This document shows positions 18,056 through 60,947 of a stretch of DNA of 64,000 bases, piece after piece. The notes beneath the pieces are model-generated. The model was not told the origin of the DNA, did no database searches, and worked only from the letters and a program-made list of their open reading frames with translations. Position 1 is the first letter of the stretch; every line of letters starts with the position of its first letter. The stretch is from IMG/VR virus record IMGVR_UViG_3300017917_003859, positions 64,001-128,000 of that record, one strand, 5' to 3'. This DNA comes from a virus. The position numbers and the translations under genes are program-made.

Positions 18056-18607
18056 ATGATAAAATTAATTGATTTACTAAACGAAGGAAAACAAGTAGGC
18101 ACCTTATATCATTTTACTTCATTAAGTGGGGGAGAAAATATTATAAAATCAAACATCCTAAAACCTATAAATTATGATTTTATCTCTTTAACTAGAGATA
18201 AAAATTTATACAAAACCTCAGATCATATAGAAGGAGGATTAGTTAGATTAACTTTAGATGGAGATAAATTATCAAATAACTTTAAAATTAAACCATATGA
18301 TGAAGATCAAAGAAAAATATATGGTAGTTTTGAATCTGAAGAAAGAATTGATAAACCTATAAAAAATATTAAAGATTATATAACTAAAATTGATATAATT
18401 TTAGATTTTTATAAGTATGTTAATCGCAACTATCCTGAATTATTATTTTATGAACCTCAAGAAATAAAAAATGCTGTTTCTATTTTTAAATCATCTGGAA
18501 TACCATTTAATATATTATTAAAAAATAATAAAGTAGATTTAAAAACATGGTTAAAAATTTCTAAAGATTTTATACAAGATAATAAAAATGAATTTAACGA
18601 TTTTTAA
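18056..18607 (+). CDS. Leader-bearing ADP-ribosyltransferase-like protein
   Basis: Start reassigned to ATG 18056 (MIKLIDLLNE); 'LYHFTS', 'ISLTR', 'ESEER' match ART-fold strand motifs. Confidence 0.55.
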   Translation: MIKLIDLLNEGKQVGTLYHFTSLSGGENIIKSNILKPINYDFISLTRDKNLYKTSDHIEGGLVRLTLDGDKLSNNFKIKPYDEDQRKIYGSFESEERIDKPIKNIKDYITKIDIILDFYKYVNRNYPELLFYEPQEIKNAVSIFKSSGIPFNILLKNNKVDLKTWLKISKDFIQDNKNEFNDF

Positions 18608-18667
18608 AAAATTCACACCTAAAGATTTTATAGTAGACTTTAAAAATATAGAAATAATAATAAAAAT

Positions 18668-20392
18668 ATGAGCATACAAGTAGATACAAGTAAATGGATT
18701 AAAGGAAAAAATTATCCGGTATGGTTTGATGAAATAGGGTTAAGTATGATTTCAAAAGGTTATTTATTACCTGATGAAGATGTATTTGACGCATTTAAAC
18801 GAGTAAGTAGAGCAGCAGCTAAACGTCTTAAACGTAAAGATTTACAACCTTACTTTTATGAAGCAATTGAAAAAAATTGGTTATGTTTAGCTTCACCTGT
18901 TCTATCTAATTTAGGAACAGAACGTGGAATGCCTATTTCATGTTTTGGAATTGATGTAGGTGATTCTATTGAAGGAATTGCTGATGCAAATTCTGAATTA
19001 ATGAGATTATCTTCTCAAGGTGGAGGAGTAGGTATTGGTTTATCTCGCATTCGCGGAAGAGGAAAACCTATTAAAGACAATGGTGTAAGTGAAGGTGTTG
19101 TACCTTGGGCTAAAATTTACGATTCAACTATATTAGCAACAAATCAAGGTTCAGTTCGTAGAGGAGCAGCATCTGTAAACCTAAACATCAACCACCCAGA
19201 TATTGAAGAATTTTTAGGTATTCGTCGTCCTAAAGGAGATGTTAATCGCCAATGTTTAAATTTACATCAATGTGTTGTTATTGATGATGAATTTATGAAT
19301 AAACTAGAAAATGGAGATCCTAAAGCTAAAAGATTATGGGGTGAAATATTAAAAACTCGTCTTGAAACAGGTGAACCTTACCTTATGTTTGAGGACAACA
19401 TTAATAATGCAAACCCTGAAGCATACAAAAAGAACAATTTAAAAGTATCAATGACTAACATTTGTACCGAAATTGCTCTTTATACAGATGAATTACATTC
19501 ATTTATTTGTTGTTTATCTTCATTAAATTTAGCTCGTTGGGATGAATGGAAAGACTATAAATTTGAAAATGGAATGACTTTACCTGAACTATCAATTTGG
19601 TTTTTAGAAGGGGTACTTCAAGAATTTATTGATAGAGCTAAAAATATTAAATTTTTTGAAAATACTGTTCGATCAGCAACTAAAGGTAGAGCAGTTGGGT
19701 TGGGGGTTTTAGGATGGCATACATTTTTACAAGCAAAAAACATTCCATTTGTTGGTATTCAAGCATCTGCTTATACAAGAATTATGTTTGAATTTATTCA
19801 AAATGAAGCTCTTAAAGCCTCTAAAGCACAAGCGGAATTTTATGGTGAACCAGAATGGTGTAAAGGAACTGGACTAAGACATACACATCATCTAGCACCA
19901 GCACCTACAGTATCTAATGCTCATATTTCAGGAGGTGTTTCACCTTCAATTGAACCAATTCCTGCTAATGTTTATAATTTAAAGACAGCAAAAGGTGTTT
20001 TTATCAAACGTAATAAAATATTAGAAGAATTATTGGAGAAAAAAGGATATAACATTGATAGTGTTTGGGAACAAATTCTAAAAGACCAAGGCTCAGTTTT
20101 AGGTTTACCTGATTATATTTTAACAGATGAAGAAAAAGAAATATTTTTAACATTTAAAGAAATTAATCAGTTAGAAATTGTTAAACAAAATGGTATTAGA
20201 CAAAAATATGTTGATCAAGCAATTTCATTAAATTTAACATTTGATCCAAATGATACACCAAAATGGATTTCTCAAGTACATAAAGAAGCATGGAAACAAG
20301 GAATTAAAACATTGTATTATTTACGTACTGAAAGTGTATTAAGAGGAGATAATTTACAGCGTTTAGCTGATTGTGTTAGCTGCGAAGGATAA
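18668..20392 (+). CDS. nrdA: Ribonucleotide reductase class Ia alpha subunit
   Basis: 'ISCF', 'GGGVG', 'TNICTE', 'APTVS', 'KTLYY', C-terminal CxxC; no ATP cone evident. Confidence 0.95.
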   Translation: MSIQVDTSKWIKGKNYPVWFDEIGLSMISKGYLLPDEDVFDAFKRVSRAAAKRLKRKDLQPYFYEAIEKNWLCLASPVLSNLGTERGMPISCFGIDVGDSIEGIADANSELMRLSSQGGGVGIGLSRIRGRGKPIKDNGVSEGVVPWAKIYDSTILATNQGSVRRGAASVNLNINHPDIEEFLGIRRPKGDVNRQCLNLHQCVVIDDEFMNKLENGDPKAKRLWGEILKTRLETGEPYLMFEDNINNANPEAYKKNNLKVSMTNICTEIALYTDELHSFICCLSSLNLARWDEWKDYKFENGMTLPELSIWFLEGVLQEFIDRAKNIKFFENTVRSATKGRAVGLGVLGWHTFLQAKNIPFVGIQASAYTRIMFEFIQNEALKASKAQAEFYGEPEWCKGTGLRHTHHLAPAPTVSNAHISGGVSPSIEPIPANVYNLKTAKGVFIKRNKILEELLEKKGYNIDSVWEQILKDQGSVLGLPDYILTDEEKEIFLTFKEINQLEIVKQNGIRQKYVDQAISLNLTFDPNDTPKWISQVHKEAWKQGIKTLYYLRTESVLRGDNLQRLADCVSCEG

Positions 20393-20393
20393 T

Positions 20394-21371
20394 ATGAAAA
20401 AATACTTTTTACCAATTTTAATAGCGCTGTCTGCATTATCAATTAGTGCAGCAGCTGCTTTTTATAGCGTAACAGGTCTAGCAAAATTGTTTGCTGGAGT
20501 AGAAACAGCAGTTATATGGATGGCTTCTTCTCTTGAAGTAGCTAAATTAGTTGTAGCATCTTTACTTTATCAATACTGGAAAAAAATAGGATGGGTACTT
20601 AAAGTATACTTAACAATTGCCTTAATTACATTAATGATAATTACATCTGCAGGTATTTATGGATATTTAAGTAGTGGTTATCAAGATACAGCAAATAAAA
20701 CAGGAGTTGTAGATAAAGAAATCGCTTTAATTGATAATAGAATAAAAACACAAGAATCAAGTAAAGAATTTACTTTACAACAATTAAAAAATACCCAACA
20801 AAGTATTTCTCAATTAAGAGGAGCATTAGGTAATAATACACAAACCTATAAAGATAAAGATGGAAACATTTTAACTACTACTTCCTCGGCAAATAGAAAA
20901 GCATATGAAAAACAACTTGAATTGGCTTTAGTAGAAGAAAAAACACTAACTAACAAATTAAATACTTTAGATTCTACATTATCAGTTTTATCAGAGGAAA
21001 AGTTAATAAAAGAATCAAATGCTGAACTGGCAGGTGAATTAGGTCCATTAAAATATATTGCTAAATTAACTGGTAAATCTATGGATAAAATTATAAATTG
21101 GTTTTTATTAGTTATTATATTTGTATTTGATCCATTAGCTATTGCTTTAGTTATAGCAGCTAACTTTGCTTTTGCCCAATTAAAAAATCCTAATAAACTG
21201 GCTATATATGATGAAAAACCAGTTGAAGTAAAACCAATCATCACAGAGCATAAAGTTGATGATTTATCAGTTCCTCCTCCACCAAAACCTAAAAATTCAT
21301 GGTACAATTATGTTCCTCCGGTTTTTGGAAAAAAGAAAAATAAAGATGATGATGAAATAATTACTTATTAG
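20394..21371 (+). CDS. Membrane protein with coiled-coil domain
   Basis: Three N-terminal hydrophobic helices, coiled coil, 'ELGPLKYIA...FVFDPLAI' TM segment; start reassigned to ATG 20394. Confidence 0.7.
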   Translation: MKKYFLPILIALSALSISAAAAFYSVTGLAKLFAGVETAVIWMASSLEVAKLVVASLLYQYWKKIGWVLKVYLTIALITLMIITSAGIYGYLSSGYQDTANKTGVVDKEIALIDNRIKTQESSKEFTLQQLKNTQQSISQLRGALGNNTQTYKDKDGNILTTTSSANRKAYEKQLELALVEEKTLTNKLNTLDSTLSVLSEEKLIKESNAELAGELGPLKYIAKLTGKSMDKIINWFLLVIIFVFDPLAIALVIAANFAFAQLKNPNKLAIYDEKPVEVKPIITEHKVDDLSVPPPPKPKNSWYNYVPPVFGKKKNKDDDEIITY

Positions 21372-26410: not shown

Positions 26411-26904
26411 ATCCGGCAGATTTAATTACTCCTCAAATATTAAATTTTTGTAAACCTATGAATACAATAGTAGTATGTGGATTTACAAAAACTGGAAAAA
26501 TAGCAATTGCTGAAAAATTATCTAAAGAACTTAATAGAAAACTTTTCATTTCAGATGATTTTCAATATGTTAAACCTGAAGAATCATTATATGAATTTAT
26601 AAAAAATATTTCTCCTTATCATCAACAGCGTGTTCCTATTATTGTTGAAGGAATTTTATGTTTTAGATTATTGAGAAAAGGAATACAAGAAGGAATATTT
26701 TTTCCTGATTTAATTATAAAAACTAAATGTGATGAAAAAACAATTAGGTATTTTTATGATAAAGATGGAGAAGGGCATAAAGCAAATAGAGCAATATCTT
26801 TTAATAAAGGATTAGATACTATATGGAATGAATATTTAAATTTATTGAATAAAAATCCATGGTTTAAAAAACCCCAATTTATAGAATTGAATACATCATT
26901 ATGA
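26407..26904 (+). CDS. P-loop nucleoside/nucleotide kinase-like protein
   Basis: 'IVVCGFTKTGK', 'IIVEG'; start reassigned to 26407. Confidence 0.62.
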   Translation: MNPADLITPQILNFCKPMNTIVVCGFTKTGKIAIAEKLSKELNRKLFISDDFQYVKPEESLYEFIKNISPYHQQRVPIIVEGILCFRLLRKGIQEGIFFPDLIIKTKCDEKTIRYFYDKDGEGHKANRAISFNKGLDTIWNEYLNLLNKNPWFKKPQFIELNTSL

Positions 26905-27077
26905 TTCAAGAACAACATCCACCAATCAAAATTACTCTTTCTAGTTTTGGAAATGAGTTTATAGCTATTTTACCTAAAAATTATGATTTAGATTTAGTAT
27001 GCAGAGCATTTGAAGGACTACTTATTAGTGCTGGATATGAAAAAGAACAAATAAATAAATTTATAAACACAAAATAA
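26901..27077 (+). CDS. Small hypothetical protein (58 aa)
   Basis: Not in track; ATGA overlap with upstream stop, MIQEQHPP...INTK. Confidence 0.6.
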   Translation: MIQEQHPPIKITLSSFGNEFIAILPKNYDLDLVCRAFEGLLISAGYEKEQINKFINTK

Positions 27078-27078
27078 T

Positions 27079-27582
27079 ATGGAAAACAAATACATACCTT
27101 TTATCTCTGAGGTAGAAGAATTTAATGAAACAATGGGTAAAGGATGGCAAAATCGTACTACACCAACAATTAATAAAGTAGATGCTGATTTTGTAATTAA
27201 TTTTATTCAAGAAGAACTTGATGAATTAAAAGAAGCAGTTGAAGAAAATGATATTGTAGGAGTATTTGATGCTATTTTAGATATTACTTATGTAGGATTA
27301 GGAAATGGGGCTTTAGTATTTGGATTAAAAGATAAAATATTAGATGGATATGCTGAAGTACAAGCATCTAATATGTCTAAACTTTGCAAATCAGAAGAAG
27401 AAGCACGTTTAACAGTTATTAAGCGCTCTGAAGAACAAGGTCGCCCGTGTCATTATGTAAAAGTAGGAGACAATTGGATTGTATATAGAGATGATAAAAA
27501 AATTATGAAAAGTTTAAACTATTTTCCTCCAAACCTAAACCAATTTTTTACAGAGGATGAAATAAATTCATGTAAAAAATAG
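27079..27582 (+). CDS. MazG-like (all-alpha) NTP pyrophosphohydrolase
   Basis: 'IQEELDEL', 'DAILDITYV', 'EVQASNMSK'. Confidence 0.85.
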   Translation: MENKYIPFISEVEEFNETMGKGWQNRTTPTINKVDADFVINFIQEELDELKEAVEENDIVGVFDAILDITYVGLGNGALVFGLKDKILDGYAEVQASNMSKLCKSEEEARLTVIKRSEEQGRPCHYVKVGDNWIVYRDDKKIMKSLNYFPPNLNQFFTEDEINSCKK

Positions 27583-27624: not shown

Positions 27625-28347
27625 ATGACAAAAATTTATTTAATTGAAAACTGTTTTGGAGATCCAAACAAAGTATATATTGGGAAAACCATTAATAGTA
27701 GATATAATCCTCACAAATATATATTTGGAGAAAATATCAAATATACTATTATAGATGAAATTAATTCTTTAGATAAAAAAGATTGGAAACCTTTAGAGTG
27801 TTATTGGATTGAACAATTTAAACAGTGGAATTTTAATGTTTTAAATAAAAATAAAGGAGGAAGTGGTCCTTCTTATTTAGATGAAGAACAAAGAAAAAAT
27901 TTAAGAGTTCCTAAAAAGAATAAAGAAAAATATTCATATCCTAAAACTCAATGTTTTATAAATTCTGTAAAGGGAAAACACAAAATTCACCCTGAAAGTA
28001 GAAATAGGAATATAAGTCAATCTTTAAAAGGATATAAACAAACAGAAGAACATATTGAAAAAAGAATTAAAAAATTAAAAAATAAACCCAATATAAAAAA
28101 TCGAAAACCAAAACCAGAAGGATTTGGAAAAATTATTAGTGAAAAGTTGAAAGGAAAAAAACATGATTTTACATCAAAACCTATTATTCAATATGATTTG
28201 AATAAAAATCTTATACAAGAATTTCCTTCCATTACTAATGCATGTGATGTTATATTTAATGATAGATCTAAAAATCCAAATATAACTAAATGTTGTCAAG
28301 GAAAAATAAAAACTGCTTATGGATTTATTTGGAAATATAAAAATTAA
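27625..28347 (+). mobile_element. GIY-YIG homing endonuclease with NUMOD/HTH C-terminus
   Basis: 'KIY...VYIGKT', 'E.YWI', 'N...GG', 'IIQYDL...EFPSI...CCQGKIKTAYGFIWKY'. Confidence 0.85.
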
Positions 28348-28382
28348 TTTATATTTTTATTAAAAATTTAAAACTAAAACAC

Positions 28383-30131
28383 TTGTATCAGTCAATTTAC
28401 TACGATCACCAATCATATACTTATTATCTCCGTGATGATGATATGGGTTGGTCTGAATTTAAATATCAACCAACATATTGGAAACGAGTAGATGAATGGC
28501 AAGAAAATGCTCAACCTGTACTGACCGGAGGATGGGCAGTACCAACTAAAAAATATAATAAAGATGATTCTAATTTATTAGAAAAAGATATTGATAAATG
28601 TCTTGTTGTATTACGAGAATTATATTACAAATTAGATGATGTTGTGCCTAAATGGCATAACATTGTTTATTTAGATATTGAAATCGAAATGGGAGGTGCT
28701 TTAACACCTGAATACATCAAAGCTGCACCTATGCCTCTTACATCCATTGCTTTAATTGACATTACCACTAAACAAAAAATATGTTTAATTGTTGATAAAA
28801 CAGGTGAAATTAAAGAAACAAATCAAGATAGCAAACATATTATACCTTGTGGTTCAGAAAAAGAATTAATTAAACGCTTTCTAGATAAATGGGAAGAATT
28901 AGACCCAACAATCATCTGTGGATATAACTCAGAATATTTTGATGTACCTTACTTGTATTTTAGAATTAAACAAGTACTAGGTGAGGATGAAGTATTGCGT
29001 TTATCTCCCATTAAAAAAATTAATTATAGAGAATTTGCTGGTCAAATGCAACTTACTATAGGAGGTGTTAACCATTTAGATTATATGCTTTTACATAAAA
29101 AGTATATTATGAAAGAAGAACCCTCATATAAATTAGGAGATATAGGAACTAAATATGTTAATTTAGGTAAAATAGAGTATGAAGGTAATTTAAATACTTT
29201 ATTTAAAAACGATATAAATAAATTTATAGATTATAACTTACGAGATGTTGAAATTATAGAAGCATTAGAAGGTAAATTAAAATTTATCGACTTAACAATC
29301 ATGATTTCTCATATTTGTAATATACCTTACGAAAGTATTTACTACAATACAGTAATGAATGAAGGTGCTATTTTAAAGTATTTAAGACGTGAAGGCATCA
29401 TTTCACCAAACAAACCAACTACTCATAATCCATCACTTAAAAACATTAAGGAAAGTTATGCTGGTGGTTATTTATTGGAACCTATTCCTGGATTATATTT
29501 TGATGTTATTGATTTAGACTTTACTTCACTATATCCTTCAATTATTAAATCACTTAATTTAGGTATTGAAACATTAGTAGGTAGAATTAAAGTACCTTAC
29601 AATGCTACTTACGAGCAAAATCATAGTTTAGAAAAACTTAAAGAACGCAATCCTGAAGAAGAAATAACTATTGAAAAATTAGACAAAACAAATTATACAC
29701 TTAAATCAGCTAAAATTAAATTAAAAACATTAATTGATATAATTGAAAAAAACAATTACACAATATCTGCTTCAGGTGCTATGTTTGATACTAACGAAAA
29801 AAGTATTGTATCTAAAATATTAGCAGGGTGGTTTGACAAACGAGAGCATTATTGTGGTTTAAAGAAAAAAGCAGGTAAAGCAGAGGATTGGGCCAATTAT
29901 AAATTATATGATTTGTTTCAACATGCTTTTAAAATCTTACAAAACGCAATGTATGGCACATTTGCTATTAATGGATGGAGATACACTGATGGTCATTTGA
30001 TTTGTAGTGCTGCTATTACAAATAGTGGACAAAGATTAACTATGTCTACTATAGATTTTGTAAATGATAAAATAAACAATGAATATTTACAATTAAGTAA
30101 AGATAAGTTAATTACTAAATTTGGTTTATGA
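28383..30131 (+). CDS. Family B DNA polymerase, N-terminal subunit (3'-5' exonuclease, motifs A and B)
   Basis: 'LDIE', 'GYNSEYFD', 'YNLRD', 'DFTSLYPS', 'KILQNAMYG'; TTG start; lacks motif C. Confidence 0.9.
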   Translation: MYQSIYYDHQSYTYYLRDDDMGWSEFKYQPTYWKRVDEWQENAQPVLTGGWAVPTKKYNKDDSNLLEKDIDKCLVVLRELYYKLDDVVPKWHNIVYLDIEIEMGGALTPEYIKAAPMPLTSIALIDITTKQKICLIVDKTGEIKETNQDSKHIIPCGSEKELIKRFLDKWEELDPTIICGYNSEYFDVPYLYFRIKQVLGEDEVLRLSPIKKINYREFAGQMQLTIGGVNHLDYMLLHKKYIMKEEPSYKLGDIGTKYVNLGKIEYEGNLNTLFKNDINKFIDYNLRDVEIIEALEGKLKFIDLTIMISHICNIPYESIYYNTVMNEGAILKYLRREGIISPNKPTTHNPSLKNIKESYAGGYLLEPIPGLYFDVIDLDFTSLYPSIIKSLNLGIETLVGRIKVPYNATYEQNHSLEKLKERNPEEEITIEKLDKTNYTLKSAKIKLKTLIDIIEKNNYTISASGAMFDTNEKSIVSKILAGWFDKREHYCGLKKKAGKAEDWANYKLYDLFQHAFKILQNAMYGTFAINGWRYTDGHLICSAAITNSGQRLTMSTIDFVNDKINNEYLQLSKDKLITKFGL

Positions 30132-30153
30132 TATTTATAACAAATACTGGATT

Positions 30154-30795
30154 ATGAAAAAATCACAACTTAGGCAAATAATTAAAGAAGAAATATTTAA
30201 AATATTAAATGAGAATATTTCTAAAATCATAGATAATTTTGAACAAGGACTAATGGTTTATATTATGGATGCATATCAACGATTAGACAATGATGAAGCT
30301 GAGTTATTAGAACTAAATGAATTATATGATTCTATAAATTGGTTTCTTAAAAATACCCCAGAAAAAGAGTTTATAGAATATGAAAAAGAAAATATGGAAT
30401 TTTTTATAAATAATAGATCTCAAATTGAACATTATTTAATAGATAATATAAATGAACCTATTAAAGTTCAATGGCCCGGATTACCAGATGTATTTTATTA
30501 TACTCCATTAGTAAAAAAGAATCAAATCTGGATTAAATTAGGGACTACCCCTAATTCAAAATTAGACCCCAAATATGATTACTACAACCCCAGTGAAGAT
30601 TTAGAGTTCCCTATACGAATTAAAAATAAAGATGATTTTGAAAAATATTCTAAAGAATTAGAGGTAAAAGGGTATTATTGGTATGGAGGAAAACCCCCAT
30701 CATCGTTTAACCCTGCAGAACAAACAAACGGAATAGAATATCCTTTTAAATTATTAAGAATAGATAAAAATTCAAAACAGTTAGGATATAATTAA
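30154..30795 (+). CDS. Leader-bearing hypothetical protein inserted between polB halves
   Basis: Start reassigned to ATG 30154: MKKSQLRQIIKEEIFKILNE; GATATTTATA at 30130. Confidence 0.75.
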   Translation: MKKSQLRQIIKEEIFKILNENISKIIDNFEQGLMVYIMDAYQRLDNDEAELLELNELYDSINWFLKNTPEKEFIEYEKENMEFFINNRSQIEHYLIDNINEPIKVQWPGLPDVFYYTPLVKKNQIWIKLGTTPNSKLDPKYDYYNPSEDLEFPIRIKNKDDFEKYSKELEVKGYYWYGGKPPSSFNPAEQTNGIEYPFKLLRIDKNSKQLGYN

Positions 30796-30819
30796 ACTAA
30801 AATCATTTTAATAAAAGTT

Positions 30820-31701
30820 ATGCAAAATATTATTATAAGCGACACAGATAGTTTATACATCTGTTTAGGCCCTATCTTAGAACATATGCGCTCTCAAGGT
30901 ATCGAAATCAACGACACTAACAAAAATGAGATCATATTAAAATTAGCAAACCAAATACAAGAAGAATCAAACGCTAATTTAGATTCAATTAGTAAAAATT
31001 TATACAACATCACCCCAGGCTCTCACTATTTCCAATTAAAACAAGAAGTAATATGTGCTGGTGTACTTACAACAGGTAAACGTCGTTATGCAATGTATGT
31101 TACTAATAAAGAAGGTGTACCTGTTGAGGAATTAGACATGAAAGGACTTGAATTAATGAAGTCCAACATGAATAAATTATTTAAAAAGTTTGGTGAAGAC
31201 TTAATTAAGAATGTATTGTTTGGTAAACCCAAAAATAAAATAGATAATTCAATAATTGAATTTTACAAATCACTTAAAACATTAGATCCAAGATCACTTG
31301 GTAAACCTACAGGAGTAAAACAAATAGAAGCATATTATGTTCCTGCTCGTGCTGGAGAAATGTTTAGTTCGTTTAAATTAAAAGCCCCAGCTAATACAAA
31401 AGCTGCTGTACGATATAATGATTTGCTTAAATTTAAAAAATTAGATAAAAAATATGAATCTATTATTGAAGGTGATAAAATATTTATTATTAATTTGAAG
31501 AAAAACCCATATAATTTAGAAACAATTGGTTTACCAAATGCTCAAGTACCTAAAGAAATAGAGGAATTTGTTAAAGCATATATTGATATTGAAGAAATAT
31601 TTGAATCATTGTTAGCAAATAAATTGAAGAATTTATATGATGATTTAAAATGGGAGTTTCCTCCTCTTAATTCAAATGTTGGAAAATTCTTTGCCTTTTA
31701 A
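30820..31701 (+). CDS. Family B DNA polymerase, C-terminal subunit (motif C and thumb)
   Basis: 'SDTDSLY', 'KRRYA', 'KGLE', 'GDKI'. Confidence 0.9.
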   Translation: MQNIIISDTDSLYICLGPILEHMRSQGIEINDTNKNEIILKLANQIQEESNANLDSISKNLYNITPGSHYFQLKQEVICAGVLTTGKRRYAMYVTNKEGVPVEELDMKGLELMKSNMNKLFKKFGEDLIKNVLFGKPKNKIDNSIIEFYKSLKTLDPRSLGKPTGVKQIEAYYVPARAGEMFSSFKLKAPANTKAAVRYNDLLKFKKLDKKYESIIEGDKIFIINLKKNPYNLETIGLPNAQVPKEIEEFVKAYIDIEEIFESLLANKLKNLYDDLKWEFPPLNSNVGKFFAF

Positions 31702-32731: not shown

Positions 32732-33025
32732 ATGTCAAAATTAGAAGCAGTTTTTAATTCAATTATCGTTAAACCTCAAGAAGAGGAAGAAACAACCTAC
32801 GGCTCAATTGTAGTTCCAGATTTAGGCAAAGAAAAAGGACTACGTGGAACTATTATTTCAATAGGCCCTGGTTACTACTCAGCCACAGGAACATTTGTTA
32901 ATACTACTTTGGAAGAAGGACAGAAAGTAATTCTACCTCCAATAGGACCAGTTAAAATTGAACATGATGGTCAAGAATATTGGTCATGTCAAGAAAATCA
33001 AGTACTTGCAATCATTAATGATTAA
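32732..33025 (+). CDS. groES: Co-chaperonin GroES
   Basis: 'IIVKP.EEEETTYGSIVVPD', 'GTIISIGPG', 'QVLAII'. Confidence 0.9.
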   Translation: MSKLEAVFNSIIVKPQEEEETTYGSIVVPDLGKEKGLRGTIISIGPGYYSATGTFVNTTLEEGQKVILPPIGPVKIEHDGQEYWSCQENQVLAIIND

Positions 33026-33035: not shown

Positions 33036-35453
<2,418 letters not shown>

Positions 35454-35454
<1 letters not shown>

Positions 35455-35702
35455 TGGAAATTAAAGAAAACTACATACTAATTGCCACCAGGCGTGCGCC
35501 TGGTGATAATTGGGTTTTAGTAGATGATGATAAACAAATTATTCATAAATCATTGACTGAAACATTAGAGGCTTATTTTCAAAAAACTCAAGCAAGATGT
35601 GATTTTAAACTTTCACCTTTGAAAGGTGAGTTATATATAATTACTACTGAAGAGGTAGCATCTCCTCCACCTAAGAAATTTAATTTATATGGGGATTACT
35701 AA
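35454..35702 (+). CDS. Hypothetical protein
   Basis: ORF. Confidence 0.6.
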
Positions 35703-35724
35703 TATTTATAGTAAATATTAACTC

Positions 35725-36162
35725 ATGAAAAAATCTGAATTACGCCAAATCATTAAAGAAGAAATACATAAAGTATTAAATGAAATAACATATATTGGAC
35801 CTGATGGAGAATTGATGGGAGATTTTACTTTAAATCAACTCCAATTAACCCCAGAAGTAAAAAAATATATAGATAAAATAGTAGAAGATGCTAAAAATGA
35901 TGGTGAATTTGAAAATTTAATTTCATTTGGCTATTTTGATACTGAATTACCTATTCATCTTCTTCAAAAATTTAATGGGGATATTATAGAAAAATTATTA
36001 GATGTCTCTCCTGAAGATTTAGAATACTTAGAATCAGCTATAGAAGATTTAGAGGATCCTGAAGATTTAGAAGATTTAGATATTGATGATGATATTAAAG
36101 AAAAATTATATACCTCCATTAGCGATAGAGTAAAAAGTTATATAGAATCTAAAATAGAATAA
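35725..36162 (+). CDS. Leader-bearing acidic protein (putative internal virion protein)
   Basis: MKKSELRQIIKEEIHKVLNE leader, AATATTTATA at 35701, very acidic body with EDL repeats. Confidence 0.7.
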   Translation: MKKSELRQIIKEEIHKVLNEITYIGPDGELMGDFTLNQLQLTPEVKKYIDKIVEDAKNDGEFENLISFGYFDTELPIHLLQKFNGDIIEKLLDVSPEDLEYLESAIEDLEDPEDLEDLDIDDDIKEKLYTSISDRVKSYIESKIE

Positions 36163-36165
36163 GTT

Positions 36166-36525
36166 ATGAAACTAGAATTAGAAAAACTTTACAAAGAATA
36201 TTGTGAAAGTGAATTAGAATCATTAAAGGGTGAAGATAAATTTATAGACATGATGTTAATGTTTGTAGAATTTAGATTATATGTAAGTGGTGGTAGTGAA
36301 TATGGTTGTACGGTAAGTATGACAACTGTAAATAATTTTTTAGATGAAATATTCTTATATGATAATATGATGGATGATTGGGGTGGGGCATATAGAGGAG
36401 AGTGTTGTTGGGAAAAGTATAGTTCTTTAAAAAGATTAGTGAATGAAAGTGAATTAAAAGAAAATATTAAAATTGAAATATTAGAAGGTTATAAGAAAGA
36501 AAATGGAATGGATGAAGAATTCTAG
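36166..36525 (+). CDS. Hypothetical protein
   Basis: ORF with AAGTTATG start; C-poor composition. Confidence 0.6.
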   Translation: MKLELEKLYKEYCESELESLKGEDKFIDMMLMFVEFRLYVSGGSEYGCTVSMTTVNNFLDEIFLYDNMMDDWGGAYRGECCWEKYSSLKRLVNESELKENIKIEILEGYKKENGMDEEF

Positions 36526-36526
36526 A

Positions 36527-36558
36527 TTTGGTTTTTTAAAAAAATTTTCATATATTAA
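36527..36558 (+). promoter_or_regulatory. Host-type promoter TTTGG-N19-TATATTAA
   Basis: Motif family, upstream of clamp loader. Confidence 0.7.
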
Positions 36559-36569
36559 AAATAAAAGTT

Positions 36570-37502
36570 ATGTCAAAAAGATTACACACTATTCTGAACG
36601 AAAAATATCGTCCTGATACTTTAGAAGGATATATTTGCAAAGATGAAATTAAAACTAAATTTGAGGAATTTATTAAACAACAAGATATTCCTCATCTTTT
36701 ATTTGCTGGTAAACCAGGTACTGGCAAGACCACAATTGCTAAAATATTAACTAAAAATATTGACTGTGATTTTATTTACATTAATGCGACTGATGAACGT
36801 TCAATAGAAGTGATGAGAGATAAAGTAGGAGCATTTGCTGCTGCTGGTTCATTTAAGCCACTTAAAATAGTAATTTTAGATGAAGCAACTCATATACTTC
36901 AAGCATCACAAGTAGTTCTATTAAACATGATAGAAACGTATAGTTTAACTACTCGTTTCATACTAACTGGTAACTACCCAGAACGACTTATACAACCGCT
37001 TAGAAGTAGATTACAAGAATTTGATTTAGTACCTCCAACTAAAAAAATAGTAGCTCAGCATATTGATGATATTTTAAATAAAGAAGGAATAGAACATACA
37101 CTTGAAGATATAGCAACTATCATTAAAAAATCATACCCTGATTTTCGTAAAATACTCAATAATTGTCAGTTAAATACTGTTAATAATAAATTGGTTTTAA
37201 CTAATTCAAATAATGATGATGATTATAAAGAAAACATTTTAAATGAACTTAAAACACCATCTACTAAATCATTTAATATTATTAGACAAATTATAGCAAA
37301 TGCTGATTTAGATAATTTTGATGATTTATATAAATTTTTATATGAAAAAATGAATGAATATTCTAAAGGTAATGAAGGTATAATAATTTGTACTTTAGAA
37401 GAATATCAATACCACTCAGTACTAGTTCTTGATAAAGAAATTAATATCATGGCTTGTATATCTAAAATATTAGAAACAATTTTAAATAAACGAATAATAT
37501 GA
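36570..37502 (+). CDS. Clamp loader ATPase subunit (T4 gp44 / RFC-like)
   Basis: 'EKYRP', 'GKPGTGKTT', 'ILDEA', 'LRSR'. Confidence 0.93.
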   Translation: MSKRLHTILNEKYRPDTLEGYICKDEIKTKFEEFIKQQDIPHLLFAGKPGTGKTTIAKILTKNIDCDFIYINATDERSIEVMRDKVGAFAAAGSFKPLKIVILDEATHILQASQVVLLNMIETYSLTTRFILTGNYPERLIQPLRSRLQEFDLVPPTKKIVAQHIDDILNKEGIEHTLEDIATIIKKSYPDFRKILNNCQLNTVNNKLVLTNSNNDDDYKENILNELKTPSTKSFNIIRQIIANADLDNFDDLYKFLYEKMNEYSKGNEGIIICTLEEYQYHSVLVLDKEINIMACISKILETILNKRII

Positions 37503-37666
37503 ACAACAACAAACACTTAACAATCGAAATTATTAGAACATTAGAATCTCTTTTACATAAAGAGTATCACCCAGATAATAGTATTATTACTAATCGTTTA
37601 GGATTTACTCCTAAACAAGAAGAAGAAATTAGAAATAAAATTTTATCACTAATTAAAACCCTATAA
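37499..37666 (+). CDS. Small hypothetical protein (55 aa)
   Basis: Not in track; ATGA overlap with clamp loader stop, MNNNKHL...IKTL. Confidence 0.55.
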   Translation: MNNNKHLTIEIIRTLESLLHKEYHPDNSIITNRLGFTPKQEEEIRNKILSLIKTL

Positions 37667-37671
37667 TATAA

Positions 37672-37917
37672 ATGAAAGAACAAATACAAATGAAAGTAGA
37701 TATTACTCAATCTACACCAATCAAATCCACAGACGGAAATCAAATATTTCAAGAAGCAGTAATACTTCGCAAAATCAGTAAATTTATTGCTGGTACAAGT
37801 GAAGATGCTGTTGTTCCAATTCCTGTATTCATCGATACAAAAACAGGAAAAATATTAATTGAAATGTTACCTAAAGAGCTTCGAGCAGAATATGAAGAGT
37901 ACAACAAAACAGCCTAA
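37672..37917 (+). CDS. Hypothetical protein
   Basis: ORF. Confidence 0.65.
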   Translation: MKEQIQMKVDITQSTPIKSTDGNQIFQEAVILRKISKFIAGTSEDAVVPIPVFIDTKTGKILIEMLPKELRAEYEEYNKTA

Positions 37918-38338
37918 ACAATTTTCAGTATTTGATTTTGTAAAAGCAATTATCGATACTAAACAATCGTGGGAATCATTTACTCCTGAACAGCAAAAAC
38001 AATTTAATAAATTTATGATTAATAAAATATTATCTATGAATCGTAAATATATTGATATTGTTAATTATGTTCAAAAATTAAATATAGAAAATAATAAAAA
38101 GGTATATGATGTGTATTGTTGGATGATTCCTCAATCAAAAAATACATATTCTCAATTTATTAAATCTGCTTCTAAAAAGTCTACTTCTGATGAATTACTT
38201 AATTATATTAAAGAATATTTTGAATGTTCATTAAAGGAAGCAGAAGAATATATCAAATTAATGGAAAACGAACATGTAATTGATATACTTACTAGTAGAG
38301 GAGCAGATGAAAAAGAAATTAAAAAATTATTAAAGTAA
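37892..38338 (+). CDS. Clamp loader small subunit (T4 gp62-like)
   Basis: 'FDFVKAI', 'FMINKILS', 'YFECSLKEAEEY'; near gp44; start reassigned. Confidence 0.7.
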   Translation: MKSTTKQPKQFSVFDFVKAIIDTKQSWESFTPEQQKQFNKFMINKILSMNRKYIDIVNYVQKLNIENNKKVYDVYCWMIPQSKNTYSQFIKSASKKSTSDELLNYIKEYFECSLKEAEEYIKLMENEHVIDILTSRGADEKEIKKLLK

Positions 38339-38685: not shown

Positions 38686-38686
38686 T

Positions 38687-39640: not shown

Positions 39641-39671
39641 TTTTCTATATATTTATATATAAACATACGTT

Positions 39672-39860: not shown

Positions 39861-39889
39861 TTATTAACAACAAAACAACAATTAGTTTT

Positions 39890-41341: not shown

Positions 41342-41352
41342 AAATAAAATCT

Positions 41353-42669
41353 ATGAATAAACCGTTATTTGTAATTAGTTGTGCCATCGACACATATAGT
41401 GGCTATGGGGCACGTTCTCGTGATATAGTAAAATCCATTATTGAATTAAAAAAAGATGAATGGGATATTAAAATAATGCCTCAACGTTGGGGTGACTGTA
41501 GTTGGGGTTTTATACAAGATAATCCTGAATGGGAATTCTTAACACAATATTTCCTTAATACTCCACAGTTAAATCAACAACCAGATATTTGGGCTCAAAT
41601 TACAGTGCCTAATGAATTTCAACCTATTGGAAAATACAATATAGGAATTACTGCGGGAATTGAAACCACAATTTGTGCCCCAGAATGGATTGAAGGAGTA
41701 AACCGAATGAATATTACTTGGGTTTCATCAAACCATTCCAAAAAAGTATTTGAAGATACTAAATATAATAAACAAGATCCTCAAGGTAGAAATGTAGGAG
41801 TAGTACAATTAGAAAAACCAATTGAGGTAGTATTTGAGGGAGCAGATCTAAATAAATATAAATTATTAAGTGATGTTAAGTCAAGTGAAATTGATTTATC
41901 ATCTATTAAAGAATCATTTTGTTATTTATTTGTAGGCCACTGGATTAATTTAAATTCTCCATTAGGTGAAGATAGAAAAAATGTAGGTTTATTAATTAAA
42001 GCATTCTTTGAAACATTTAAAAATAAACAAAATAAACCAGCATTAATTTTAAAAACATCAAGTGCTGTTAATTCATACATGGATAGGGATGCTATATTAA
42101 AAAACATACATGCTATTAAACAAACAGTAAACAGTACAAATTTACCTAATATTTATTTATTACATGGTGATTTTACTGATGCTGAAATGAATGAGCTTTA
42201 TAATAATATTAAAGTAAAAGCTATGGTTTCATTAACTAAAGGAGAAGGTTTTGGTCGTCCATTACTTGAATTTAGTTTAGTTAAAAAACCTATTGTTACT
42301 ACAAATTGGAGTGGACATATAGATTTCTTAAATAAAGCAAATGTTACTTTATTAGGTGGAGAATTAAAACCTGTGCACCCAGCAGTATCAAATCAATTTT
42401 TACTTAAAGAAAGTTCTTGGTTTAATGTAAATCCTGTAGAGGTTGGAGAAGCATTAATGGATGTTTATAAAAACTATGACAAATATCTACCAGGTGCTCG
42501 TAAACAAGGAGAACAAAATAAAGAGAAATTTAGTTTTGATGCGATGAAGCAAGTTGTAAAAGAACAATTAGCTAAAGTACCTGAGTTTCCAAAACAAATT
42601 CAATTAAAATTGCCCTCTCTTCGTAAAATTGAATTACCAAAACTTACTAAAATAGAAAACAATGATTAA
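41353..42669 (+). CDS. Glycosyltransferase (GT4/GT-B)
   Basis: 'SGYG', 'RKN', 'EGFGRPLLE'. Confidence 0.9.
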   Translation: MNKPLFVISCAIDTYSGYGARSRDIVKSIIELKKDEWDIKIMPQRWGDCSWGFIQDNPEWEFLTQYFLNTPQLNQQPDIWAQITVPNEFQPIGKYNIGITAGIETTICAPEWIEGVNRMNITWVSSNHSKKVFEDTKYNKQDPQGRNVGVVQLEKPIEVVFEGADLNKYKLLSDVKSSEIDLSSIKESFCYLFVGHWINLNSPLGEDRKNVGLLIKAFFETFKNKQNKPALILKTSSAVNSYMDRDAILKNIHAIKQTVNSTNLPNIYLLHGDFTDAEMNELYNNIKVKAMVSLTKGEGFGRPLLEFSLVKKPIVTTNWSGHIDFLNKANVTLLGGELKPVHPAVSNQFLLKESSWFNVNPVEVGEALMDVYKNYDKYLPGARKQGEQNKEKFSFDAMKQVVKEQLAKVPEFPKQIQLKLPSLRKIELPKLTKIENND

Positions 42670-43210
42670 GCTAGTAGATTTACTTAAAGAAAATAGTGAT
42701 AGTAAATACAAGTATGGATGTGTAATGTTATATTTTGATTTTCCCGAAATTAATAAAATACATGATGCTATCAACCCAAATGATATATATGAAGAAGATG
42801 GAGATAAAACTTTTGGATTAGAAGATGAACCCCATACAACTTTACTGTATGGTCTTCACCCTGAAGTTAGTTTAGATGAAGTTAAAAAAATATTAAATTC
42901 ATACACTTATTATCCTTGTACTATCAAGAATGCTTCATTATTTAAAAATGAAAAATATGATGTATTAAAATTTGATGTTGAAGGAAAAAATTTACATGAA
43001 ACTAATAATGATTTAAAACGATATCCATTTACAAGTGATTACCCTGATTATCACCCCCACCTTACAATTGGATATATTAAACCTGGATTTGGAAAAAAGT
43101 ATACTAAAATGTTAAAAGAGATAGAATTCAAATTAATCCCCCAGTATGTAGTATATTCTCACCCAGATGGAACTAAAGATAAAATTAAAATAAAAGTAGA
43201 AAATTTGTAA
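42662..43210 (+). CDS. Leader-bearing 2H phosphodiesterase, Acb1 / T4 gp57B-like
   Basis: MIKLVDLLKE leader; two HxT motifs 'PHTTLLYG' and 'TSDYPDYHPHLTIGY'. Confidence 0.78.
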   Translation: MIKLVDLLKENSDSKYKYGCVMLYFDFPEINKIHDAINPNDIYEEDGDKTFGLEDEPHTTLLYGLHPEVSLDEVKKILNSYTYYPCTIKNASLFKNEKYDVLKFDVEGKNLHETNNDLKRYPFTSDYPDYHPHLTIGYIKPGFGKKYTKMLKEIEFKLIPQYVVYSHPDGTKDKIKIKVENL

Positions 43211-43252
43211 TCTCTTTTGTGATCTTTATCTTTTATTTAATATTTATAACCG

Positions 43253-43402
43253 ATGGGAAGAATTAAAAAATACCAAACACCTGAAGAAAAACAAAAAGCT
43301 AGGGCAAATGCTTCCAAAAAATATTACTGGAAAAATAAAGAACAAGAAGATGAAAAAGCAAGACAACGATATAAAAATAACAAAAATATATCTCGTGACT
43401 AA
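43253..43402 (+). CDS. Small basic protein (49 aa) overlapping the endonuclease gene
   Basis: Not in track; MGRIKKYQTPEEKQKARANASKKYYWKNKE...; AATATTTATA at 43239. Confidence 0.6.
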   Translation: MGRIKKYQTPEEKQKARANASKKYYWKNKEQEDEKARQRYKNNKNISRD

Positions 43403-44006
43403 CTGCTATGGAGATCCCAATAAAATTTATATAGGTAAAACAAAAGGATCAAGAAAAGCAGCTCATAAAAGAAAATTTGGAAAACAAATTGAATATACTT
43501 ATATTGATGAAGTTTTAAGCTTAAATAAAATACATTGGAAACCATTAGAAACATTTTGGATCCAACAATTCAAACAGTGGGATTTTAAAATATTAAATGA
43601 AAATGAAGGTGGTGGAGGACCAGAATTTATATCTGAAGAAGTTAAAAGAAAAATTAGTATAAATAACACAGGAAAACCCAAATCAAAAGAACACTGTAAT
43701 AAAATAAGTCAATCTAAAAAAGGATGTAAAGTATGGAGTAAAGGTAAAAAATTTTCAAAAGAACATTGTGAAAAAATAAGCAAAAATTCAGCAGGAAAAT
43801 CAAAACCTTCATCTTCTTATTTAAATAATCAACATAGTGCTAAATCTATTTTTCAATATGATTTAAATTTAAATTTTATTAAAGAATGGTCTAGTATTAA
43901 AAAAGCAGCTTTAGAACTAAATATAACTCCTGAAGCAATTGGGAATTGTTTAAGAAAAGGAACAAATTCATCATCAGGAGGATTTAAATGGAAATATAAA
44001 AACTAA
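43308..44006 (+). mobile_element. GIY-YIG homing endonuclease with NUMOD repeats (paralog of 27625)
   Basis: 'KIYLVTNCYGDPNKIYIGKT', 'SKEHCNKIS' / 'SKEHCEKIS' repeats, 'IFQYDL...GFKWKY'; true start uncertain. Confidence 0.85.
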
Positions 44007-58301: not shown

Positions 58302-58302
58302 T

Positions 58303-58608: not shown

Positions 58609-58627
58609 TTCTGCAATATGTATAGTC

Positions 58628-58768
58628 ATGGCAAAATTAAAAGAACAAATCATTAGTTTTTTCAACAAATTCAAGAAAAAACGCAAGGGTATACATAGTA
58701 AGAAAAAATCTAGTAAACTTAAAACTAGCAAAAATTACAAAAAACCATATAAAGGACAAGGTAGATGA
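58628..58768 (+). CDS. Small lysine-rich protein ending KPYKGQGR (46 aa)
   Basis: Not in track; AATATGTATA at 58615; stop overlaps next ATG. Confidence 0.68.
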   Translation: MAKLKEQIISFFNKFKKKRKGIHSKKKSSKLKTSKNYKKPYKGQGR

Positions 58769-59292
58769 AGCGCTCAGAACTCAAACAAATTATTAAGGAA
58801 GAATTAGCAGAAGCTAAGAAAAAAGATAAAACAGGTTTATCATTTGCTCTAGCAGCAAACCTTGAAAAATACGGAAAACCTCAAACCCCAAAAGGCGCTA
58901 AACCTGTTGATTTTACTAAAAAACAAGAAAAACACGTAAAGAAAACAGCAGAAAAACTTAAAAAATCAATTAAAGAAGATTTAGGTAACTACATGTTTTT
59001 CCAAAACCTTAAAACCATTAAACAAATGGTTGATGATTTACTTAAGTTAGATGAAAAAATGGTTGATGGTATTTTAGCAAGTGGGCATGATTGGGCTGAA
59101 GATCATATTGCAACATCAAAAGATGATGTTGAAGAAGTACATAATTTTCTAATGAATAAAAAAGTTGCTATGCCTGTTGGGATGAATGAAAAGAAACAAT
59201 TGTCTCCTAAACAAAAGAAAATAGCAGCAGCTGCTCCACCAGAAGATGAAATAACGGGTGCTGATTTTAAAGTATTAAGAAATAAAAAATAA
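58765..59292 (+). CDS. Leader-bearing modular protein (putative internal head protein)
   Basis: MKRSELKQIIKEELAE leader; internal IKE and MNE sites. Confidence 0.7.
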   Translation: MKRSELKQIIKEELAEAKKKDKTGLSFALAANLEKYGKPQTPKGAKPVDFTKKQEKHVKKTAEKLKKSIKEDLGNYMFFQNLKTIKQMVDDLLKLDEKMVDGILASGHDWAEDHIATSKDDVEEVHNFLMNKKVAMPVGMNEKKQLSPKQKKIAAAAPPEDEITGADFKVLRNKK

Positions 59293-59300
59293 ATTGAAGG

Positions 59301-59332
59301 CTTGGCTTCCAATGTAAATTAATATATATTTA
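59301..59332 (+). promoter_or_regulatory. Host-type promoter CTTGG-N19-TATATTTA
   Basis: Motif family. Confidence 0.62.
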
Positions 59333-59349
59333 TATTAAACAATTAAACA

Positions 59350-59748
59350 ATGAAACAACAACTCAACGAAGAATTCTGTCGCATGCAAAAACTTGCAGGA
59401 ATTAAATTAAATGAAAATGAAAACTCACGTGAAGGAATTATAAGCTTTGGTCCATTTAAAAATGTAGAATGGTATTTACGTGACAATAATCAAGTATTTT
59501 TAACTGTTACTGAAAGTGATAATTTTAGAAAAATAGAAAATGAACTTGAATACACTAGTGATGAACTTACTGATGAACAGAAATCATTTTTAGATAATGA
59601 AGTAAATAATTTAGCTGAGGAAATGAGTGATTATTTAATGTCTATTGGAGTTAAAAATGAAATATATGATAATCCAATTGGTTATGGTCAAGAAATTGAC
59701 AATTTAGTGGTTGCTTTTGATAAAAATGATTTATCTAAACTTAAATAA
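59350..59748 (+). CDS. Leader-bearing acidic protein
   Basis: MKQQLNEEFCRMQKLAGIKLNE leader, acidic body. Confidence 0.7.
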   Translation: MKQQLNEEFCRMQKLAGIKLNENENSREGIISFGPFKNVEWYLRDNNQVFLTVTESDNFRKIENELEYTSDELTDEQKSFLDNEVNNLAEEMSDYLMSIGVKNEIYDNPIGYGQEIDNLVVAFDKNDLSKLK

Positions 59749-59772
59749 TAGAATTATATAAAAATTAAATAA

Positions 59773-59828: not shown

Positions 59829-60287
59829 AAAGTAGTTACAGACAACAGTGTATTCCCTCCCCGCAAACATTACGAGGATGTAGAATTAAAATTTACAAAA
59901 TTTACCCCAAAATGTCGTGTTCTCCCAGCAAATTATTTTGAAGAACCAAACACCCATTTTATCCTTAAAGCTAGATATGAACCTGGTGAAAATAAATTTT
60001 TCCCAATGGGTGGATTTGAAGTAAAACATTCCGAAGGAGGCACATACAATTATTATTTAGATGAAGTAATTGTTCATCCGTATGAATTAGGAATGAATAA
60101 ATTTTTCACTAAAGCCCCACCAGAAATTAAAGAAAAAGTAAAAGACCCAAATGCTCCTAAAGGAAAACGTGGTCGTAAAGCATTAGATCCTGAAGTAAAA
60201 GCTGCTAAAGAAGCAACAAAATTGGCTGAAGCTGAGGAAAGACGTAAGCGAAGCGGTGGAAAACGTGGAAGACCGAAGAAGTCATAA
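59826..60287 (+). CDS. Protein with C-terminal AT-hook-like motifs
   Basis: 'KGKRGRK' and 'KRGRPKK'. Confidence 0.65.
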   Translation: MKVVTDNSVFPPRKHYEDVELKFTKFTPKCRVLPANYFEEPNTHFILKARYEPGENKFFPMGGFEVKHSEGGTYNYYLDEVIVHPYELGMNKFFTKAPPEIKEKVKDPNAPKGKRGRKALDPEVKAAKEATKLAEAEERRKRSGGKRGRPKKS

Positions 60288-60301
60288 TATGTATAATAGT
60301 C

Positions 60302-60601
60302 ATGAACGACGAATATCAAACTTATCAATATTGGAATAATATGAAAAAACAACAACTCAAACAAATAATCAGAGAAGAAGTACGCAAAGTATTAACTGAA
60401 GGATTAAAATTTGGAAATGTAGGAAAAGGTGAAGAATATTTTGCTACTGAAGATTTTAGTATTTTTAAAAAAGGTGATAAAGTATATGTAGATACTGTTA
60501 GAAATTCAGGAACTGAAGTTGTTCTTGAATTATCTAATGATGCTGGAGAGCATGATTCTATTAAAGGTGATTTAAACGACGAAATTGAAGTATTTGATTA
60601 A
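60302..60601 (+). CDS. Leader-bearing protein (leader Met at 60341)
   Basis: MKKQQLKQIIREEVRKVLTE; AATATGTATA at 60286. Confidence 0.7.
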   Translation: MNDEYQTYQYWNNMKKQQLKQIIREEVRKVLTEGLKFGNVGKGEEYFATEDFSIFKKGDKVYVDTVRNSGTEVVLELSNDAGEHDSIKGDLNDEIEVFD

Positions 60602-60602
60602 T

Positions 60603-60947
60603 ATGAAAAAAATTGAATTAAAAGAAATTATACGTAAAGAAGTACGCGAAGCTCTAGACTCAGAATTCGAAAAGGCTCAAGACAAATTATATACTTCAGT
60701 AACTGGAAAAGAACCAGGTTCAAAAGGTTTAAATAAATTTAGAACCGATTCTAGTAATCCTAACAAAAAATATATAGTATCATATTGGTATACTACTAAT
60801 AATGGTAATGATGTTGATAACGATTATATAACAGATGTTATAGCTACTTCTCCTGAAGAAGCTATTGAGGTGGTAATGAATAATAGGTTTGAGTATGGTG
60901 TTCCTAGAACTGCTAAAAATTTTAAAGCAACAGAACAAAAAAATTAA
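60603..60947 (+). CDS. Leader-bearing protein
   Basis: Start reassigned to 60603: MKKIELKEIIRKEVREALDSE. Confidence 0.7.
   Translation: MKKIELKEIIRKEVREALDSEFEKAQDKLYTSVTGKEPGSKGLNKFRTDSSNPNKKYIVSYWYTTNNGNDVDNDYITDVIATSPEEAIEVVMNNRFEYGVPRTAKNFKATEQKN

Follow-up and report, generated by a model that had tools for sequence, protein, structure and literature searches.

Exchangeable N-terminal peptides on unrelated proteins of a T4-like Flavobacteria phage as candidate capsid-targeting tags

The 64,000-nucleotide stretch of DNA analyzed in this study (the window) covers bases 64001-128000 of the IMG/VR virus record IMGVR_UViG_3300017917_003859, which has a length of 155,027 bp, is approximately 95% complete, has a G+C content of approximately 27% and holds nearly all genes on the + strand. 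The source is an uncultured T4-like phage of Flavobacteria. Its nearest cultured relative was Flavobacterium phage vB_FspM_immuto (hereafter immuto), with a capsid protein identity of 57%. Eight open reading frames (ORFs) of the window, designated A1, B1, B2, A2, B3, C1, B4, and B5, combine unrelated bodies with short N-terminal peptides (tags) of three types, A, B, and C. The original prediction for this DNA had interpreted these peptides as portable packaging tags that load exchangeable cargo into the phage head. No match was obtained when cultured phages were searched by megablast with 12 kb of the genome, or by tblastn with A1.

Shared N-terminal peptides on unrelated proteins

All eight ORFs begin with the predicted peptides, and no similarity among the eight bodies was detected by blastp, which agrees with the original description of leaders on unrelated proteins. 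The predicted tag lengths were 10, 16, 20, or 22 residues, and the type C tag of C1 matched its profile with an E value of 3e-12. The positions of the eight genes and of three nearby copies of a promoter-like motif are given in Table 1.

Table 1. Tagged genes and motif copies ahead of them, in window positions (aa, amino acids; pI, isoelectric point)
Feature	Position	Strand	Description
A1	18056..18607	+	type A tag 18056-18085, 10 codons ending L-N-E; body 173 aa, predicted ADP-ribosyltransferase fold
ATATTTATA	30131..30139	+	14 nt ahead of B1 start
B1	30154..30795	+	type B tag 30154-30213, 20 codons ending L-N-E; acidic body 193 aa
ATATTTATA	35702..35710	+	14 nt ahead of B2 start
B2	35725..36162	+	type B tag 35725-35784; acidic helical body 125 aa, pI 4.1
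A2	42662..43210	+	type A tag 42662-42691 ending L-K-E; body assigned to Acb1-family 2H phosphoesterases
B3	58765..59292	+	type B tag 58765-58812, predicted end L-A-E; basic body 159 aa, pI 9.5
ATATTTATA	59326..59334	+	15 nt ahead of C1 start
C1	59350..59748	+	type C tag 59350-59415, contains RMQKLAGI, ends L-N-E; acidic body 110 aa, pI 4.1
B4	60341..60601	+	type B tag 60341-60400, contains LKQIIREE, ends L-T-E; acidic body 66 aa
B5	60603..60947	+	type B tag 60603-60650, predicted end V-R-E; body 98 aa

The 22-residue segments of 193 genome proteins were compared by ungapped BLOSUM62 scoring. The results showed 22 pairs with a score of at least 40 among the N-terminal segments, compared with 2-3 pairs among internal segments, and 15 pairs with a score of at least 45, compared with 0-1. 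The blastp alignments of B1, B2, and B4 ended at residues 20-29. The tags of B1 and B2 have 17 of 20 residues in common, five of which are encoded by different codons (e.g., CTT/TTA and AGG/CGC), and the DNA identity of the tags was only 60-82%. Since the same residues often use different codons, selection on the leader acts on the peptide and not on the DNA.

The terminal position of the peptides was confirmed in IMG/VR. When IKLIDLLNE was searched without its start codon, ATG stood immediately before the match in 76 of 77 cases, and the bodies behind it were many and varied, including P-loop proteins, 5'-nucleotidases, and the ADP-ribosyltransferase-fold family. LKQIIREE lay no more than 12 residues from the first Met in 115 of 132 matches, with four more being probable. 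The carriers of LKQIIREE other than terminase comprised 57 unique proteins, which fell into 53 unrelated body clusters, and their commonest junction was L-N-E.

A scan of the whole genome for such leaders, which the original prediction had proposed, detected approximately 13 further N-termini of this kind outside the window, mostly at genome positions 14.8-32.7 kb, adjoining the head module. The genome total thus amounts to approximately 21 tagged genes, or approximately 10%. At least 12 tagged ORFs were found in immuto (NC_055915), with starts at 1803, 24569, 81525, 102294, 102880, 103366, 103806, 111675, 113188, 117631, 118632, and 125241. They include a fourth tag type (type D, F-D-L-K-K-F-L class), which was also detected in metagenomic homologues but not in the present genome. 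A literature search retrieved no paper with these tag motifs.

Exchange of tags, the junction and the link to the phage head

Next, the orthologues of three window proteins (A2, A1, and B2) were compared. The best 120 homologues of A2 (59-86% identity) carried tags of type A (88), C (12), D (2), and B (1) or other helices (17); in all 120, (L/I/V)-x-E was located 2-5 residues ahead of the conserved Y-x-Y-G-C, with L, I, and V at position P3 in 82, 34, and 4 sequences, respectively. In the A1 family, hydrophobic-x-E stood immediately ahead of the conserved GKQVG start in 116 of 118 members, under tags of types A, B, C, and D and others. The junction residue Glu20 of B2 was invariant in 16/16 homologues, in which the same body occurred under B, C-like, or A tags. 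The leaders are thus portable and exchangeable, as originally proposed, and can be regarded as functionally equivalent modules, with the junction as the part that stays constant in the exchange. Of the evidence added in this study, we consider this exchange the strongest.

The junction was also compared with the propeptide junction of the capsid protein (E60) in an alignment of 56 capsid-protein relatives that were 28-69% identical. Glu occupied P1 in 53/56 and L/I/V/M occupied P3 in 53/56, whereas P2 was variable and P1' was A/S/T. As judged from the alignments, the rule at the tag junctions is that at the propeptide of the capsid protein, a bona fide protease substrate.

The head genes are located upstream of the window at genome positions 33326-43677 and include genes for the large terminase, an acidic 344-aa scaffold-like protein, a T4 gp20-type portal (PF07230, 1.6e-67), and a gp23-type major capsid protein (PF07068, 1.6e-74). 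The gene at genome positions 40077-40682, also outside the window, encodes an S77 prohead protease of the gp21 family (PF03420, 1.7e-29). The head protease that the original prediction had assumed is therefore encoded by this phage, and the tag junctions match the capsid propeptide site. The prohead protease aligned to T4 gp21 5JBL (phmmer, E 5.6e-15) with its D-H-P, S-S-R-G, and W-D-F segments kept. These segments surround the catalytic His, Ser, and Asp. Among five long tag-bearing contigs, the three most complete were those that encode S77.

The tags were further linked to the head by the type C motif. RMQKLAGI formed the final residues of 300-470-aa proteins in 94 IMG/VR matches, and a gp23 gene adjoined 89 of these 94 loci, so these proteins were regarded as scaffolds. 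In approximately 26 matches, the same motif was instead located near the N-terminus, at a distance of 10-16 residues, in small proteins of diverse kinds. RMQKLAGI was confined to these two places, with 1-2 matches being ambiguous. Within the scaffold tails, (I/V/L/M)-x-E preceded RMQKLAGI in 85/94, in 69 of them exactly six residues ahead, and the scaffolds of this phage and of immuto have the same tail layout, which is the one expected for a docking tail that would be released by the protease. Six-frame translation of the genome placed the RMQKLAGI class only at the scaffold C-terminus and in C1. In terms of sequence, the type C tag is the C-terminal tail of the scaffold shifted to the N-terminus of a cargo protein, with the putative cut site on the opposite side. 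Since type C is the scaffold's own tail, the tags are tied to head assembly. Likening type A to the scaffold N-terminus gave a weak result and was rejected: the scaffold of this phage has D-L-L-K-E, and many relatives have Gln in place of Glu.

Several other proteins encoded outside the window resemble the tags or the scaffold tail. The protein at genome positions 30136-30975 has a type B-like N-terminal tag together with a scaffold-like C-tail of the RMQK-AGI class, and an internal copy related to this tail was observed in the protein at 26486-27448. A 262-aa head-module protein (37653-38441) contains a segment similar to the capsid propeptide (28% identity over 85 residues, E 6e-4) with the same junction, ahead of which a tag-like helix is located. 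The 545-aa protein encoded before the protease (38438-40075) appears to be built of successive modules, with L-K-E/L-N-E sites at the joints and a type B-like helix at its end.

An attempt to relate leaderless homologues to the absence of S77 failed, in that a 2H homologue without a leader coexists with a weak S77 match (27.1 bits) in Maribacter phage Molly_1. In Molly_1 (NC_062751, positions 2283-2997), two small ORFs beside the leaderless 2H homologue begin with tag-like helices (M-K-K-E-N-I-K-E-L-I-E class), and Molycolviridae may have a similar tag system.

Proteins behind the tags and their genomic setting

To describe the cargo, the bodies were subjected to Pfam and fold searches. The AlphaFold2 (AF2) model of A1 had a predicted local distance difference test score (pLDDT) of 83, and its tag formed a separate short helix with a pLDDT of 54. 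No Pfam match was found for A1; the Foldseek search gave an E value of 1e-4. In the VIA-align comparison, all 50 top rows belonged to the ADP-ribosyltransferase (ART) superfamily. The best match, yeast Tpt1, had a Z score of 10.6 and a root-mean-square deviation of 2.6 over 111 residues, and Z scores of 8-9 were obtained with KptA/DarT. The ART-aligned range begins at residue 9-15, which leaves the tag outside the fold. Residues Y18, H19, T21, R47, and E95 were invariant in 51 homologues. According to the model, the A1 body has an ART fold of the Tpt1/KptA-DarT branch. A2 matched the Pfam family Acb1 (PF23474) with 31.3 bits against a cut-off of 27 and has both H-x-T motifs (H-T-T-L and H-L-T-I), which identifies it by sequence as a member of the Acb1 family. 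Both enzyme-like cargoes named in the original prediction, the ART-like enzyme and the 2H phosphodiesterase, were thus recovered.

B1, B2, B4, B5, and C1 are acidic, whereas B3 is basic. A Pfam search of these six proteins gave nothing significant, and an ESM Atlas search with B1 gave no usable match. The AF2 model of B2 (pLDDT 70.6) shows the tag as a helix of residues 3-21 and was too uncertain for a fold search, so that the term 'DNA mimic', which had been proposed for the acidic proteins and goes back to pI values of 4.1-4.3, remains only a guess.

A1, B1, B2, and A2 are single-gene insertions, and B3, C1, B4, and B5 lie together in a cluster of 2.2 kb. A1 separates the genes for the small and large subunits of ribonucleotide reductase (RNR) at window positions 17095-20392. 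The gene for a family-B DNA polymerase is split into 28383-30131 (exonuclease and N-terminal polymerase part) and 30820-31701 (C-terminal part), with B1 between the halves. B2 is located downstream of the phage GroEL gene, and A2 lies behind two glycosyltransferase genes. Both chaperonin components are phage-encoded, GroES at window positions 32732-33025 (Cpn10 1.6e-19) and GroEL at 33823-35454 (Cpn60 3.1e-70). In the cluster, B5 starts 2 nt behind the B4 stop and forms a tandem pair with it. The B4 start is ambiguous, with an alternative upstream ATG at 60302 immediately after a variant of the promoter-like motif. A 46-aa, very basic ORF at 58628-58768 overlaps the B3 start with its stop (ATGA), which suggests translational coupling. 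Three paralogous genes of 205-240 aa (33-39% identical) are dispersed at window positions 27625-28347 and 43308-44006 and at genome positions 28094-28711, and are probably homing-endonuclease-like.

The promoter-like motif ATATTTATA occurs in 32 copies on the + strand of the genome compared with 4 on the - strand, mostly 3-30 nt ahead of start codons. It is frequently continued by ATAAA, and copies in the window include those at 4562, 17070, 21393, 30131, 35702, 39649, and 59326. The motif was enriched ahead of tagged genes (8/21 compared with 14/172, p 6e-4). It is closer to the Bacteroidota -7 element TAnnTTTG than to the T4 late promoter. The original prediction had described one motif, also preceding tail genes, behind which several tagged genes lie. 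This description was half right. The exact ATATTTATA does stand ahead of the genes at 30154 and 35725, as well as that at 59350, whereas a variant, ATATGTATA, with a score below the profile threshold was found at 58615 and 60286. The core AATATGTATA is common to the segments 58611-58627 and 60283-60301, with (AT)AGTC and ATG behind it (AGTCATG at 58611 and ATAGTCATG at 60283). One of these AATATGTATA-core sites precedes the 46-aa basic ORF and the other precedes the alternative B4 start, and they may constitute a second promoter or start signal. The description as a tail-gene motif proved too narrow, because ATATTTATA stands not only ahead of tail genes but also ahead of those for RNR beta, QueC, and GroES. 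Its use as a marker of late expression was rejected on the same grounds: the motif is not specific to structural genes and thus gives no proof of late expression.

Capsid targeting, alternative explanations and known systems

The analyses show that the peptides are genuine, that they are strictly confined to protein termini, that they can replace one another, that they have a link to head proteins, and that their junctions obey the rule described above. By comparison with T4, it is probable that they are T4-like capsid-targeting tags, which would occur here in several exchangeable types. Each tag would form an amphipathic helix through which the protein, once synthesized, docks into the prohead during assembly; type C would do so by copying the docking tail at the scaffold C-terminus. 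Once the shell is closed, the gp21-family serine protease would cut behind the Glu of the (L/I/V)-x-Glu junction, the tag would leave, and the mature protein would stay beside the DNA inside the head. The cargo would then be delivered into the host with the genome, by analogy with the internal proteins (IPs) and Alt of T4. It would include the Tpt1/DarT-like ART-fold protein, the Acb1-type 2H phosphoesterase, and a number of small proteins that are either acidic or basic. As for the packaging-tag interpretation in the original prediction, portability, the link to the head, the protease, the junction, and the two cargo assignments were borne out; virion presence, cleavage, and early injection, and likewise docking and retention, are steps that we infer by analogy. 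It is also quite possible, as a more tentative proposal, that cargo is loaded by scaffold mimicry, in which the tags would be docking peptides borrowed from head-core proteins of the phage and the tagged proteins would enter the prohead, be released, and be injected.

Several observations weigh against capsid targeting. (L/I/V)-x-E ending at residues 8-24 was also found in 34% of the other N-termini; the abrupt end of similarity at this motif, which the original prediction had noted, is therefore weak evidence in a single sequence, and its strength lies in the family alignments. Furthermore, 47 of the 132 LKQIIREE matches were N-termini of large terminases, across this whole phage group, and large terminase is not a head-internal protein. 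This counter-example is weakened by the alignment of the terminase R-E-E-Y-x-K-C part with T4 gp17 from residue 132, since the second half of the stretch thereby belongs to the ATPase fold and is not an add-on. The large terminase of the present phage (genome positions 33326-34897, outside the window) likewise opens with the type B core LKQIIREE. The replication block contains several of the tagged genes, and their motif is shared with RNR, QueC, and GroES genes, so that they may not be expressed late. The resemblance of the tags to the capsid-targeting sequence (CTS) of T4 is limited to length, helical character, and ending; by eye, Met1, the final Glu, and the preceding hydrophobic positions agree with MKTYQEFIAE, a peptide too short for statistics. 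To our knowledge, Acb1 and 5'-nucleotidase-type enzymes are not virion cargo in T4. For this phage group, the literature yielded neither virion proteomics nor N-terminal sequencing nor protease assays.

Three other explanations were considered. The tagged proteins might enter the prohead core and serve there as auxiliary core or assembly parts that are degraded, expelled, or inert, and are not delivered effectors. Such a role would suit the tag-like helices in head-module proteins (the 545-aa, 262-aa, and genome 30136 proteins) and the several cargo bodies that are small, acidic, and without known family. However, the Acb1-type 2H protein and the Tpt1/DarT-like ART, with their intact catalytic motifs or folds, lack an obvious assembly role, and the wide variation of bodies among related phages (53 clusters in 57 carriers) suits accessory effectors better. 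The CTS-bearing proteins of T4 are, moreover, ejected (PMC5694885), and we consider an assembly role unlikely. The peptides might instead be helices that bind another hub, such as GroEL/GroES, a multimerization partner, or terminase/portal, and that are neither packaging signals nor removed. The phage does encode GroEL and GroES, with B2 adjoining GroEL, the type B core is shared with terminase, and the N-terminus of T4 gp23 steers fusion proteins to GroEL (PMC3012670). The tags, however, are unlike the N-terminus of the capsid protein, and binding to such a hub leaves unexplained why the junction Glu is invariant and agrees with the capsid propeptide site. The type C sequence is that of the scaffold tail, with 94 occurrences at the ends of scaffolds encoded beside the capsid gene; the exchange of types A, B, and C on one and the same body points to a common function, and an alternative hub is accordingly quite improbable.

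Finally, the shared gene starts could reflect a nucleic-acid feature, i.e., a translation-initiation region or a recombination cassette that carries the promoter together with the gene start, in which case the peptide would be functionless. The same promoter-like motif is present on several tagged genes, and single-gene insertions between core genes (RNR subunits, DNA polymerase halves) would be consistent with such a cassette. A cassette at the DNA level was nevertheless rejected because of the synonymous differences, as the different codons behind 5/17 identical B1/B2 residues include two- and three-base changes, and DNA identity is as low as noted above. In addition, the same peptide is found at scaffold C-termini and the junction Glu is kept under unrelated tags, which makes this explanation highly improbable.

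If the tags work as capsid-targeting tags, the proteins brought in before phage gene expression could be read from the sequence, and this set would be large and variable in an abundant aquatic group, with probable anti-defence enzymes included. If scaffold mimicry also holds, approximately one tenth of the genes in aquatic T4-like Flavobacteria phages would form an exchangeable, pre-made first-strike arsenal. A nuclease of the Acb1 type, directed at cyclic-nucleotide defence signals, and an ADP-ribosyltransferase of the nucleic-acid type would belong to it, and at least four tags of equivalent function would move freely from cargo to cargo. The copy of the scaffold tail suggests a simple loading rule, namely use of the scaffold's docking site, with potential for packaging of foreign proteins beyond T4. 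The at least 12 tagged genes in the cultured phage immuto make the claim directly testable.

Among known systems, T4 is the closest. Its CTS, MKTYQEFIAE, comprises approximately 10 residues and is cleaved once, and foreign proteins fused to it are packaged into the scaffolding core (PMC8442874). CTS propeptides have 10-20 residues, Alt is cut at I-T-E-6, and gp21 cleavage always occurs behind Glu (PMC5694885); the internal proteins of T-even phages are diverse, the CTS alone being conserved (PMC3012670). Similarly to the CTS of IPI, IPII, IPIII, and Alt, the tags are short N-terminal peptides with a hydrophobic-x-Glu end on unrelated proteins, type A having exactly 10 residues, and they occur with a gp21-family S77 protease and a gp20/gp23 head. 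Like Alt, one predicted cargo protein has an ADP-ribosyltransferase fold. In contrast to T4, the present genome has at least three tag types, and relatives a fourth, that are swapped on the same cargo; approximately 21 genes (about 10% of the genome) are tagged instead of a handful, they are dispersed and lie also in the replication block, and one tag copies the scaffold tail. The host is flavobacterial, and the system is known here from sequence alone.

The C-terminus of herpesvirus (M-site) and P22-type scaffolds is a capsid-binding tail, which in the herpesvirus type is accompanied by a protease release site. Similarly, the scaffold in this phage group ends in a conserved tail of the RMQKLAGI class with hydrophobic-x-Glu at a fixed distance ahead; unlike in those viruses, the tail peptide is also N-terminal on unrelated small proteins, with the predicted cut site behind it instead of ahead. 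Encapsulins are HK97-fold shells with short terminal cargo-loading peptides that are portable among unrelated enzymes. The tags resemble these as short, portable terminal peptides that are proposed to dock cargo inside an HK97-fold shell. Encapsulin peptides, however, are usually C-terminal and are not removed by a protease, and their shells are without DNA and without delivery, whereas the tags are N-terminal.

The proteases of giant phages (phiKZ gp175 and SPN3US gp245) belong to the same wider family and recognize a motif of three residues, behind whose Glu they cut; numerous proteins inside the head undergo processing, as would be the case here by comparison (PMC5694885, PMC10052503). The N-terminal propeptides of the ejection or inner-body proteins of giant phages mostly exceed 100 residues and have the motif A/S/G-x-E, whereas the tags have 10-22 residues with L/I/V at P3, and giant-phage processing is known by mass spectrometry, whereas that of the tags is deduced from comparison. 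In summary, the principle is already known from T4 and giant phages, and what is new here is a set of tags that can replace one another, including one taken over from the scaffold.

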